Assembly (NCBI GenBank): GCA_038087875.1
Contig: CM075987.1
Span: 18,044,001 to 18,108,000 of the forward strand
Direction: 5' to 3'
DNA from: Malacoraja senta
Lineage: Eukaryota
DNA length: 64,000 nt
The notes beneath the pieces were generated by a model. The model was not told the DNA's origin. It was given only the letters and a program-made list of their open reading frames with translations, and searched no databases. The position numbers and the translations under genes are program-made. Below, one piece after another: positions 9,395 to 13,274 of this stretch (its first letter is position 1; each line of letters starts with the position of its first letter).

Positions 9395-12348
9395 CTATCT
9401 ACCTGCACTCAGACCATAACCCTCCATTCCTTTCCCGTCCATATACCCATCCAATCTATTTTTAAAGGATAACATCGAACCTGCCTCCACCACTTCCACT
9501 GGAAGATCATTCCACACAGCTACCACTCTCTGAGTAAAGAAGTTCCCCCTAATGTTCCCCCTAAACTTCAGTCCCTTAATTCTCAAGTCATGTCCCCTTG
9601 TTTGAATCTTCCCTACTCTCAATGGGAAAAGCTTATCCACGTCCACTCTGTCTAACCCGCTCATAATTTTCAAGACCTCTATCAAGTCCCCTCTTAACCT
9701 TCTGCGCTCCAAAGAATAAAGACCTAACTTGTTCAACCTTTCTCTGTAACTTAGTTGCTGAAACCCAGGCAACATTCTAGTAAATCTCCTCTGTACTCTC
9801 TCTATTTTGTTGACATCCTTCCTATAATTAGGCGACCAAAATTGTACTCCATACTCCAGAATTGGCCTCACCAATGCCTTGTACAATTTTAACATTACAT
9901 CCCAACTTCTATATTCAATGCTCTGATTTATAAAGGCCAGCACACCAAAAGCTTTCTTTACCACCCTATCTACATGAGATTCCACCTTCAGGGAACTATG
10001 CACAGTTATTCCTAAATCCCTCTGTTCAACTGCATTCCTCAATTCGCTACCATTTAGCGTGTACGTCCTATTTTGATTTGTCCTGCCGAGATGTAGCACC
10101 TCACATTTGTCAGCATTAAACTCCATCTGCCATCTTTCAGCCCACTCTTCCAAATGGCCTAAATCTCTCTGTAGACTTTGAAAATCTACTTCATTATCCA
10201 CAACACCACCTATCTTAGTATCATCTGCATACTTACTAATCCAATTTTCCACACTTTCATCCAGATCATTGATGTACATGACAAAGAACAGTGGACCCAA
10301 CACAGACCCTGAGGCACCCCACTAGTCACCGGCCTCCAACCTGACAAACAGCCATCCACCATTACTCTCTGGCATCTCCCATTCAGCCACTGTTGAATCC
10401 ATCTTCCTACTCCACCATTAATACCCAACAATTGAATCTTCTTAACCAACCTTCCATGAGGAACCTTGTCAAAGGCCTTACTGAAGTCCATATAGACAAC
10501 ATCCACTGCTTTACCCTCATCAATTTCCCTAGTAACCTCTTCGAAAAATTCAAGAAGATTAGTCAAGCATGACCTTCCAGGCACAAATCCATGTTGACTG
10601 TTCCTAATCAGACGCTGCTTATCCAGATGCTTATATATATTATCTTTAAGTATCCTTTCTATTAATTTGCCCACCACTGACGTCAAACTAACAGGTCTAT
10701 AATTGCTAGGTTTACTCTTCGAACCCTTTTTAAACAACGGAACAACATGCGCAGTACGCCAATCCTCCGGCACTATTCCCGTTTCTAATGACATTTGAAA
10801 TATTTCTGTCATAGCCCCTGCTATTTCTACACTAACTTCCCTCAATGTCCTAGGGAATATCCTGTCAGGACCTGGAGACTTATCCGTTTTCATATTTTTC
10901 AAAAGTGTCCGCACCTCCTCTTCTTTGAATCTCACAGTTTCCATTGCTACTCTGCTCGTTTCCCTTACCTTACATAATTCCATATCCTTCTCCTTCGTGA
11001 ATACCGAAGAAAAGAAATTGTTCAATATCTCCCCCATCTCTTTTGGCTCTGCAGATAGCTGTCCACTCTGTCTCTCTAATGGACCGATTTTATTCCTTGT
11101 TATCCTTTTGCTATTAATATAGCTGTAGAAACCCTTTGGATTTACTTTCACCTTACTTGCCAAAGCAACCTCATATCTTCTTTTAGCTTTTCTAATTTCT
11201 TTCTTAATATTCTTTTTACATTCTTTATACTCCTCAAGCACCTCATTTACTCCATGCTGCCTATAATTATTGTAGATCTCTCTCTTTTTCCGAACCAAGT
11301 GGCCAATTTCCCTTGAAAACCATGGCTCTTTCCATTTTTTACTATTTCCTTTCAACCGAACAGGGACATAAAGATTCTGTACTCTTAAAATTTCACCCTT
11401 AAATGTCCTCCATTTTTCTTCTACATCCTTCCCATAAAACAACATGTCCCAATTCACTCCTTTTAAATCCTTTCGCATCTCCTCAAAGTTAGCCTTTCTC
11501 CAAACAAAAATCTCAACCCTAGGTCCAGTTCTGACCCTCTCCATAATTATATTGAAACTAATGGTATTGTGATCACTGGACCCGAAGTGCTCCCCGACGC
11601 ATACCTCCGCCACCTGCCCTGTCTCATTTCCTAACAGGAGGTCCAGCACTGCCCCTTCTCTAGTAGGTACCTCTATGTATTGCTGCAAAAAACTATCTTG
11701 CACACATTTTACAAACTCCAAACCATCCAGCCCTTTTACAGAATGTGTTTCCCAGTCTATGTGTGGAAAATTGAAATCTCCCACAATGACTACCTTGTGC
11801 TTACTACTAATATCTGCTATCTCCTTACATATTTGCTCTTCCAATTCTCGCTCGCCATTTGGCGGTCTATAATACACCCCTATAAGTGTTGCTACACCTT
11901 TCCCATTTCTCAGTTCCACCCAAATAGCCTCCCTAGACGAGCCCTCTAATCTATCCTCCCAAAGCACTGCTGTAATATCTTCCTTGACAAGCAATGCAAC
12001 ACCCCCACCTCTTGCCCCTCCAATTCTATCACCCCTGAAGCAACGAAATCCTGGAATATTTATTTGCCAATCACAGCCCTCCTGCAACCATGTTTCACTG
12101 ATCGCCACAACATCATACTTCCAGCTGTCAATCCAGGCTCTAAGCTCATCCACCTTTCTTACAATGCTCCTAGCATTAAAATATACACATTTAAGTAACC
12201 CACCACCACTTATTCTCTGTTTATTATCTTTTTCTTCTTTCTCCCCTACATTTTGGGTCCGAGTGCTTCCCTTCTCTGCCTCCTGCCTCCCACATTTTCC
12301 ACTAGCTTTCTCTATTTGAGTCCCTCCCCCCAACCGTTCTAGTTTAAA
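9395..12348 (-). CDS. CR1-B ORF2 (APE endonuclease plus reverse transcriptase), one frameshift near 10305
   Basis: ORFs 10210..12333 (FNARS, ISETWL, VGDFN, SSDHN, DFSKAFD) and 9395..10303 (YADD). The sister copy reads ACAGATCCCTGAGG at 33431, versus ACAGACCCTGAGG here (1-bp deletion). Confidence 0.9.
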
Positions 12349-13274
12349 GTCTCCCCAGTAGCCTTTGCAAATCGCCCCGCCAGGATATTGGTCCCCCTCG
12401 GGTTCAAGTGCAACCCGTCCTTTTTGTACAGGTCACTCCTTCCCCAAAAGAAATCCCAATGATCCAGAAATTTGAATCCCTGCCCGCTGCACCAGTTCCT
12501 CAGCCACGCATTTATCCTCCACCTCACTCCATTCCTACTCTCACCGTCACGTGGCACAGGTAGTAATCCTGAGATTGTTACCTTTGTAGACCTTCTCCTT
12601 AACTCTCCTCCCAACTCCCTAAATTCTCCTTTCAAGACCTCTTCTCTTTTTCTACCTATGTCATTGGTACCTATATGTACCACAACCTCAGGCTCCTCTC
12701 CCTCCGATTTCAGGATATCTTGGACGCGTTCAGACACATCCCTGACCCTGGCACCAGGGAGGCAAACTACCATCCAGGTCTCCTGACTGCGTCCACAGAA
12801 TCGCCTATCCGACCCCCTAACCATAGAGTCCCCTATTACTATTGCCCTCCTCTTCTTTTCTCTACCCTTCTGAGCAATAGGGCTGGTCTCTGTGCCGGAG
12901 GCCCGGCCGCTGTTGCTACCCGCAGGAAGGCTGTCCCCCTCAACAGTACTCAAACAGGAGTACTTATTTTCAAGGTGTACAGCCACCGGGGTACTAACTA
13001 GTCCCTGCCTCTGCCCCTTGCCCTTCCTAACCGTGACCCACTTGTCTGCCTCCCGTGGTCTTGGAGTGGCCACCTCCCTATAACTCTTTTCTATGACCTC
13101 CTCACTCTCCCTGATCAGACAGAGGTCATCGAGCTGCTGCTCCAGGTTCCTAACACGGTCCCTTAGGAACCCCATCTCTATGCACCTGACACAGATGTGA
13201 ACGTCTGGAGGGGTATCAGACTCCATGACCTCCCACATCTGACATCCAGAACAGTAAACTGCCCTGGCCCTCAT
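12339..13274 (-). CDS. CR1 ORF1 protein (N-terminal zinc finger, coiled coil, SGNH/GDSL esterase-like domain)
   Basis: 311-aa intact ORF with CSGC..HICVRC, LRDRVRNLEQQL, VIGDSMV, HIGTNDIG and DGLHLN. Confidence 0.92.
   Translation of the reverse strand: MRARAVYCSGCQMWEVMESDTPPDVHICVRCIEMGFLRDRVRNLEQQLDDLCLIRESEEVIEKSYREVATPRPREADKWVTVRKGKGQRQGLVSTPVAVHLENKYSCLSTVEGDSLPAGSNSGRASGTETSPIAQKGREKKRRAIVIGDSMVRGSDRRFCGRSQETWMVVCLPGARVRDVSERVQDILKSEGEEPEVVVHIGTNDIGRKREEVLKGEFRELGGELRRRSTKVTISGLLPVPRDGESRNGVRWRINAWLRNWCSGQGFKFLDHWDFFWGRSDLYKKDGLHLNPRGTNILAGRFAKATGETLN

Follow-up and report, generated by a model that had tools for sequence, protein, structure and literature searches.

The Malacoraja senta genome carries, within a 64,000-nucleotide (nt) stretch of contig CM075987.1 (positions 18,044,001 to 18,108,000; the window), a near full-length CR1-like long interspersed nuclear element (LINE) whose first open reading frame (ORF1) ends in the heptamer T_TTA_AAC immediately before its stop codon. 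We propose that CR1-like LINEs with an esterase-type ORF1 probably use this heptamer for programmed -1 ribosomal frameshifting, by which an ORF1-ORF2 fusion protein would be produced. All support for this reading is comparative: heptamer, phase and abutting stop recur in five lineages of the same genome, ORF2 is always found in the -1 frame, and distant relatives have another canonical heptamer at this position. To our knowledge, a slip-back route to ORF2 is not established for vertebrate LINEs. The name CR1 is used broadly here for the CR1/L2 group and implies no placement in the CR1 clade or in L2 by phylogeny of the reverse transcriptase (RT).

The ORF1/ORF2 junction of the window element

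The element belongs to the lineage that we call B and lies on the minus strand (Table 1). Its ORF1, with the first ATG at 13274, encodes a Cys-rich N-terminus followed by a GDSL/SGNH esterase domain (PF13472, E 3.8e-15 in the domain search) and a C-terminal end of ...GETLN-stop. ORF2 encodes an apurinic/apyrimidinic endonuclease (APE; PF03372, Exo_endo_phos, E 1.9e-16) and then an RT (PF00078, RVT_1, E 6.5e-20), and this combination of an APE endonuclease and RT in ORF2 with an SGNH/GDSL esterase in ORF1 fits a CR1-group (CR1/L2) LINE. On the minus strand, 12350-12339 reads ACT TTA AAC TAG. The -1 frame (TTT AAA CTA GAA CGG TTG...) is open from 12432 to 10210, which gives 712 codons counted from the heptamer, with the endonuclease motif starting at codon 56. 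This frame has no Met codon between heptamer and motif, its first Met comes only past the endonuclease domain, and the remaining two frames of the linker contain 4 and 5 stops.

The initial annotation had described both the ACT TTA AAC TAG end of this minus-strand ORF1 and an ORF2 that is open across it in the -1 frame and AUG-free to the end of the endonuclease, and direct reading of the window together with a check of frame and Met positions bears it out on both. The three further sites that it listed on the plus strand, each a TTTAAAC followed by a stop, are all present (Table 1), every site in the window is followed by a G run, and the in-frame linker AUG that it had flagged in lineage A is there as well. 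The lineage A junctions have flanks nearly identical to those of lineage B, and in the window's lineage C copy the -1 frame continues into the APE domain. TTTAAAC occurs 14 times in the window against an expectation of 6.1 +/- 2.9, and 1 of 100 shuffles reached 14; this count is weak on its own, so our case is built on position, phase and conservation.

Downstream of ORF2, at 9262-9366 (-), we observed a run of about 33 A and then a short ggcc-gagat-ggcc hairpin that is followed by TATGGT-type repeats (two clean units, then variants), with hairpin and repeats at about 9310-9262 (-). A short hairpin with a microsatellite tail is the 3' end typical of CR1, and the segment probably represents the element's genuine 3' tail.

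Table 1. Junction features and reading frames of CR1-like LINEs in the window.
Feature	Position	Strand	Details
ORF1 of the near full-length CR1-like LINE, lineage B	12339..13283	-	314 codons stop to stop
Slippery heptamer T_TTA_AAC, lineage B	12342..12348	-	0 frame: contains the final two ORF1 codons
ORF1 stop TAG, lineage B	12339..12341	-	directly abuts the heptamer
G-rich tract GGGGGGAGGG, lineage B	12322..12331	-	starts 10 nt past the heptamer; candidate stimulatory element
ORF2 in the -1 frame, entered at the heptamer (putative), lineage B	10210..12348	-	56-codon linker, APE endonuclease, first part of RT
Remainder of RT and ORF2 C-terminus, lineage B	9395..10321	-	different frame; one frame break inside RT in this copy
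Lineage A junction, copy 1	15968..15994	+	TTTAAAC 15968-15974, TAG 15975-15977, G6 15985-15990, GGG 15992-15994
Lineage A junction, copy 2	57187..57213	+	TTTAAAC 57187-57193, TAG 57194-57196, G6 57204-57209, GGG 57211-57213
Lineage C junction, GGT TTA AAC TAA	22332..22357	+	heptamer 22332-22338, stop 22339-22341, G5 22347-22351, GGG 22355-22357

Conservation of the heptamer among lineages of one genome

To place this junction among its relatives, we searched the window's own assembly (1.94 Gb) using divergent ORF1 proteins from public databases as queries, comparing individual copies throughout and entering one copy per lineage in the codon alignment. A 201-nt junction query returned 40 scored matches of 469 candidates, 39 of them at 99% identity and the 40th being the window itself, which indicates that lineage B was active recently and that its layout is that of a working element. 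Five lineages were distinguished in the genome, with junctions reading GAG ACT TTA AAC TAG (A/B), GTG GGT TTA AAC TAA (C), AGG TCT TTA AAC TAA (D), GTG GTT TTA AAC TGA (E) and GAG GAT TTA AAC TAA (F). Every one has NNT TTA AAC directly before the stop, despite a stop codon that changes between TAG, TAA and TGA and a nucleotide identity of 54-82% among the five over the 116 nt upstream of the heptamer. Queries P0055, P0050, P0013 and P0128 found no lineage in this genome beyond those already listed.

At the level of single copies, the site is intact in 17/20 A/B copies drawn from an unrelated hit list, in 2/2 copies of D, in 3/4 of E plus 4/4 of a mosaic sub-lineage, and in 2/3 of F. The counts for B (30/30) and C (heptamer 30/30, TAA 29/30) are biased, since the queries that retrieved these copies contained the site. 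Copies without it (3/20 A/B, 1/4 E and 1/3 F) carry single substitutions within the site, and such losses in decayed copies argue that the site is not mutationally protected.

The last 41 ORF1 codons of the five lineages form a gapless alignment with 12 degenerate columns that are invariant in amino acid, only three of which are invariant in codon too: one Asp (GAC), the terminal Leu (TTA) and the terminal Asn (AAC). Synonymous variation is seen in 9/10 invariant degenerate codons other than the terminal TTA and AAC, including all three remaining invariant Leu columns, which use TTG, TTA, CTT or CTG. The codon preceding TTA encodes Thr, Gly, Ser, Val or Asp depending on the lineage and has T as its third base in 5/5; among the five columns that hold at least four different residues, no other keeps its third base unchanged. 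Judged by these codon patterns, the heptamer is conserved beyond what protein coding needs.

The same genome also holds mosaic elements (L090-L092 and L094), in which an E-type ORF1 end and junction are fused to an F-type linker (...GCKMRVEAIGSKVKSKSGRQT...), and at 5504-5800 (+) of the window an A-type linker fragment leads into the same F-type segment. Such mosaics suggest that 5' modules have been exchanged between LINE lineages.

Frame of ORF2 and its point of entry

ORF2 was found in the -1 frame relative to ORF1 in 7/7 lineages, namely the five of the genome and two metagenome loci described below (L096 and L097), L097 being readable for 12 codons only. In every copy readable as far as the endonuclease motif, a stop-free -1 frame leads there from the heptamer over 56-111 codons, a distance in which each of the other two frames has 4-12 stops. 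A -1 frame stop lies 5 codons upstream of the heptamer in lineages C, D and F, which confines entry into the ORF2 frame to about 22 nt ending at the ORF1 stop.

Start codons are not conserved in the linker. There is no Met in B or in the window's C copy; elsewhere Met codons lie at position 63 and 71 (A), 41 (another C copy), 39 (D), 56 or 25 (E), and 3 and 19 (F), and these positions are non-homologous between lineages. An AUG overlapping or near the stop is absent from A, B, C, D, E, L096 and L097.

Homologous proteins and a second heptamer

The homologue set contains 204 proteins, gathered from a word-indexed search (63) and from the best 150 of 2718 matches of an exhaustive HMMER search, and its named sources include skates, rays, sharks, a coelacanth and a frog. 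We took a C-terminus as intact-looking when the last esterase motif (DGLHL-like) lay 20-45 residues from the end, as it does in 137/204 proteins, C-termini in protein databases being dependent on gene callers. Asn is the last residue of 94 of these 137 (76 LN, 9 GN, 3 EN, 2 KN, 2 SN, 1 IN and 1 FN), and in 67 of these 94 proteins the distance from the start of the motif to the C-terminus is exactly 26 residues. Immediately ahead of LN stands an amino acid that an NNT codon can encode (G, A, T, S, Y, D, C, H, N, F or V) in 75/76 cases, the exception being one Glu; ahead of GN stands Gln in eight proteins and Pro in one, each of which can be encoded by a codon ending in G.

We had set the prediction beforehand that GN endings would be encoded by G_GGA_AAC-stop with ORF2 in the -1 frame; for KN endings the predicted heptamer would be A_AAA_AAC. 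A scan of metagenome contigs of the Joint Genome Institute (JGI) with a GN/KN-type alignment produced three loci, of which L096 and L097 reach the junction and L098 ends short of it. L096 reads CTG CAG GGA AAC TAG gtaaggataggggtgaaggg, has a GDSL domain in ORF1 and a G run downstream, and keeps its -1 frame open for 235 codons to the end of the locus, with a match to Exo_endo_phos (E 6.8e-12). L097 reads GCG GGA AAC TAG gatggattgggggacaggg, likewise with a G run downstream, before the contig ends. The prediction was thus borne out at the DNA level, G_GGA_AAC-TAG standing in 2/2 metagenome loci that reach the junction. Relative to the genome lineages, TTT is exchanged for GGG as a block while phase, AAC, abutting stop and downstream G run are retained, and this joint change of three X positions looks like the behaviour of tandem-slippage sites. 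An X_XXY_YYZ motif in phase with the 0 frame, always as NNX XXA AAC, is therefore seen as T_TTA_AAC in the 5 genome lineages and as G_GGA_AAC in the 2 metagenome loci; at the DNA level, the LN class comes from one genome and the GN class from two anonymous metagenome contigs. Scans with the other alignments gave zero matches for A4 (the '...RRALN' class) in genome contigs or viral contigs and zero for A3 and A5 in viral contigs; A5 matched one 506-nt contig among the genome contigs, which is short of the junction.

Some database entries related to this ORF1 deserve separate mention. In P0033, a predicted ray protein of 425 amino acids, ...LN runs in one frame into an endonuclease-like start (...LYLNARSVRNKADEL...), so that it is either a copy with a linker deletion or a corrected gene model. 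ORF1 also partly matches the host-named proteins P0031, P0052, P0054 and P0062, the names on such matches being 40S ribosomal protein S24 isoform X2, transmembrane protein 204 isoforms and ABHD14A-like protein; faulty gene models or exonised fragments of the LINE are the probable explanation. P0028, named 'SGNH/GDSL hydrolase family protein [Pseudomonas aeruginosa]' and encoded on a 4159-nt contig, is 56% identical to the LINE ORF1 and ends in ...REGLN, and is probably vertebrate DNA contaminating a bacterial assembly.

A G tract downstream of the heptamer

A run of at least four G starts 7-12 nt after the heptamer in 9/9 junction sequences from 7 lineages. It is usually followed 1-4 nt further by a second run of at least three G, which comes after 9 nt in D and after 13 nt in E. 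The 100 nt past the stop are rich in purines (A+G 63-77%, C 6-13%), and the tract also codes for a Gly-rich stretch of the linker. The length of the junction G run is hypervariable among the lineage C copies L031-L060, at 6 to about 17 G, and in dead copies this homopolymer throws ORF2 out of frame. In folds of B/A and E there is a possible long-range pairing between the G run and a CCC-containing motif 75-100 nt downstream, a pairing that is also found by eye in the window's C copy and is weak in D and F. We regard the G tract as the best candidate stimulator of the putative frameshift; the G run, acting as a G-quadruplex, by binding a protein or in some other way, may stimulate slippage, and so may the adjacent stop, alone or together with it.

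Reads across the junction

PolyA RNA-seq reads of a related species cover the junction with about 370 reads in each strand class, the reads being 90-99% alike. Across 501 nt they show no insertion, deletion or splice joint, which indicates that the two ORFs are out of frame in the RNA as well. The heptamer and stop have no listed base difference, while reads and window disagree at more than 40 positions elsewhere in the 501 nt; one G of the G run is C in the reads (position 12327).

A probable programmed -1 frameshift and its alternatives

In the mechanism that we favour, the majority of ribosomes on the bicistronic LINE RNA would read ...UUA AAC and then end translation at the following codon, yielding the ORF1 protein (ORF1p). 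A minority would slip back by one base on U_UUA_AAC, the Leu tRNA re-pairing from UUA to UUU and the Asn tRNA from AAC to AAA, either in a tandem slip of the P and A sites or during a pause of the P-site Asn tRNA opposite the stop. Slipped ribosomes would continue through UUU AAA CUA... and across the 56-111 codon linker into the endonuclease and RT, so that an ORF1p-ORF2p fusion would be made at a fixed low ratio, as in retroviral Gag-Pol. Since the stop always adjoins the heptamer, it may itself be part of the signal; perhaps it merely sets the default product, or perhaps it lets the slip occur while the stop is slowly decoded. The occurrence of slippage, its efficiency and the fusion as the active form are what we infer.

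The initial annotation had put forward -1 frameshifting as a candidate reading, and the comparative data favour it, as neither of the two sequence patterns that it had set against this reading was observed: the Leu and Asn codons do not vary freely (TTA and AAC fixed in 5/5, with 9/10 comparable codons varying), and the frame of ORF2 is -1 in 7/7 lineages, over 12 codons in the case of L097. Its caveat of about two independent examples is relieved by the five genome lineages and by G_GGA_AAC in distant relatives.

Several observations nevertheless weigh against a frameshift. Because the five genome lineages share an ancestor, inheritance accounts in part for the heptamer that they have in common, and the argument has to rest on the contrast with neighbouring sites; the B and C copy counts carry the retrieval bias noted above. 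A stable downstream hairpin was not predicted for any of 8 sequences, nor one shared among them, when 45, 60, 80, 90 and 120 nt were folded with ViennaRNA, a method without pseudoknot prediction. Minimum free energies at 45, 80 and 120 nt were within -1.5 to +2.1 standard deviations of mononucleotide shuffles for 8/8 sequences, and folding that allows for G-quadruplexes gained energy in just 3/8 (B, A and one C copy). Of the downstream structures that the initial annotation had suggested looking for, a G-quadruplex is predicted in some lineages only. Among the homologues, 43/137 lack a terminal Asn; some of these ends look like decayed stops (LN-Y, LN-C, GN-L) and others may use another route. 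RNA reads are about equal on both strands and do not demonstrate sense-strand transcription of the LINE. In-frame linker AUGs leave initiation at an AUG possible in A, D, E and F, and lineage F (L067-L069) has a UAAUG, a -1-frame AUG that overlaps the stop right after the heptamer. With both a heptamer and a UAAUG, the arrangement that drives reinitiation in SART1 of Bombyx, lineage F may combine two routes.

The alternative that deserves most attention, though we consider it unlikely, is termination-reinitiation, a mechanism demonstrated in SART1 (UAAUG) and suggested for mammalian L1, in which the 40S subunit would stay after the ORF1 stop and restart nearby in the -1 frame at an AUG or non-AUG codon, giving separate ORF1p and ORF2p. 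The constant position of the stop, a few bases from the obligatory entry point into the ORF2 frame, would suit such a restart, as would the UAAUG of lineage F with its AUG in the ORF2 frame, and reinitiation or 'not clear' is also the view of two-ORF LINEs in the available parts of the published accounts (PMC3708506, PMC5009743). An AUG near the stop is missing from 6/7 lineages, however, and so is any near-cognate codon in common, the -1 codons past the site differing by lineage. A calicivirus-type TGGGA about 118 nt upstream is found by eye just in B, C and E, where it is inside His-Trp-Asp codons, and is absent from D and F. Nor does reinitiation predict the X_XXY_YYZ phasing, the fixed T or G as third base before the site, or the block swap of TTT for GGG.

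An independent start of ORF2, by leaky scanning, internal entry or a non-AUG codon in the linker, with Leu-Asn kept for the function of ORF1p, seems to us very improbable. It would draw on the in-frame linker Met codons of A, D, E and F and on the conservation of Leu-Asn at the protein level, but those Met positions are non-homologous across lineages, and lineage B, the youngest and most homogeneous, is Met-free to the end of the endonuclease. Protein function likewise leaves unexplained why a single Leu codon, TTA, is used in 5/5 when other invariant Leu columns vary, why the third base is fixed in a codon for five different residues, and why the Gly-Asn class uses exactly GGA with a G before it. 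Least credible of all, to the point of being scarcely tenable, is a heptamer without any role that was inherited from the common ancestor by coincidence or hitch-hiking. The relatedness of the five genome lineages and the only about twofold excess of TTTAAAC in the window would fit this, yet 7/7 heptamer bases are fixed despite the diverged flanks and changed stop codons, decayed copies do lose the site (as counted above) and so give no sign of mutational protection, and distant relatives have a different canonical heptamer at the same place.

Beyond the programmed -1 frameshift at this site, a broader reading is possible, which we offer tentatively and do not treat as the expectation: esterase-ORF1 CR1/L2 LINEs of vertebrates and of eukaryotes known from metagenomes only might share an ancient cassette in which X_XXA_AAC is followed by an abutting stop and, 7-12 nt on, by a G tract, with ORF2p made solely as an ORF1p-ORF2p fusion and with a stimulator unlike the usual pseudoknot. 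If so, non-LTR (long terminal repeat) elements would follow the Gag-Pol logic, with the polymerase physically bound to the ORF1p particle and to its own RNA, and the stimulator would be a stop-assisted slip, a G-quadruplex or a bound protein.

Comparison with known recoding signals

The -1 signal between ORF1a and ORF1b of coronaviruses consists of U_UUA_AAC plus a pseudoknot. The LINE junction shares with it the heptamer and its phase, the presumed tRNAs (Leu UUA and Asn AAC) and a polymerase in the downstream frame, and differs in that the 0-frame stop abuts the heptamer and that a purine-rich region with a G run, for which no hairpin is predicted, follows. The second LINE heptamer, G_GGA_AAC, is also the shift site of beet western yellows virus in the luteovirus/dianthovirus group, and in barley yellow dwarf virus (G_GGU_UUU-UAG) the 0-frame stop follows the shift site directly, as it follows the heptamer here; signals of the luteovirus/dianthovirus group use a compact pseudoknot or a long-range kissing interaction, unlike the LINE.

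In gag-pol of retroviruses and LTR elements, an ORF for a nucleic-acid-binding structural protein is followed by an RT ORF in the -1 frame with a heptanucleotide in the overlap, and a fixed ratio of structural to fusion protein is presumed, all of which resembles the LINE as far as the available portion of the source goes (PMC5009743). The LINE differs as a non-LTR element whose ORF1p is of the esterase type and not a Gag, which has no protease to cleave the fusion, and whose usable overlap is just 5 codons plus the heptamer in lineages C, D and F. Among LINEs, TRE5-A and TRE3-A of Dictyostelium (APE-type) 'require a -1 frameshift' according to the part of a 2018 review available to us, and these belong to another LINE clade and another host than the CR1-like element; that part contains no analysis of shift site, conservation or stimulator for them. 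SART1 of Bombyx and mammalian L1 resemble the present elements in having a bicistronic RNA with entry into ORF2 tied to the ORF1 stop, and UAAUG is found in lineage F as well. Reinitiation at the UAAUG of SART1 depends on the AUG and on downstream structure, according to the accessible text of PMC3708506, unlike the junctions described here, where the AUG is missing in 6/7 lineages and the conserved element is a phased slippery heptamer.

How ORF2 is translated from a bicistronic LINE RNA is an unsettled question, for which a conserved slippery site in phase offers a concrete hypothesis. In its available portion, a 2013 paper on 2A peptides of the CR1 clade calls ORF2 translation 'not clear' and cites SART1 reinitiation (PMC3708506), and HeT-A, TART and L1 are the sole non-LTR elements mentioned in that of a 2016 recoding review (PMC5009743). 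The terms 'frameshift', 'slippery' and 'overlap' are absent from a 2026 survey of the vertebrate CR1 group, a 2014 survey of 448 Jockey-superfamily ORF1s and a 2013 esterase structure paper, and the available portions of PMC5009743, PMC3708506, PMC13343379, PMC4120745, PMC3905857, PMC4255032 and PMC5911963 do not mention a CR1/L2 frameshift or slippery site. In the searchable literature we found no report of the signal for CR1/L2, a scope that leaves outside the 1990s-2000s papers on chicken and turtle CR1, Maui, ZfL2-1 and jockey, which possibly treat overlapping ORFs. Frameshifting by -1 is classical and has already been claimed for some LINEs; the cassette, in which the stop abuts the heptamer and a G tract replaces the expected hairpin, conserved across deep CR1-group lineages, appears undescribed.

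CR1-group elements are the dominant retrotransposons of most vertebrates, and the esterase type is the only identifiable ORF1 type in their CR1 and L2 lineages, as stated in the available text of the 2026 survey (PMC13343379). If our reading is right, recoding would set the ORF1p:ORF2p ratio in these LINEs, and the active polymerase would be a fusion protein, with a bearing on cis-preference and particle assembly. Annotation pipelines should then fuse ORF1 and ORF2 across the -1 shift, and the conserved G tract, taken with the hairpin that is not predicted, could indicate a non-standard frameshift stimulator.

Other features of the window

Fragments of CR1-like ORF2, nested and truncated copies included, crowd both strands of the window, where tblastn gives about 60 segments. 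RT matches at just 20-31% identity, at 14575-15546, 44354-45199, 50558-51480 and 62226-63061, likely derive from other LINE clades. Extreme base skews mark 28001-32000 (GC +0.50, AT +0.62) and 52001-56000 (GC -0.53, AT -0.61), in that order, both of which are probably long purine/pyrimidine-rich simple sequence, and within 51542-55092 frames of 1119 and 1181 codons are open.

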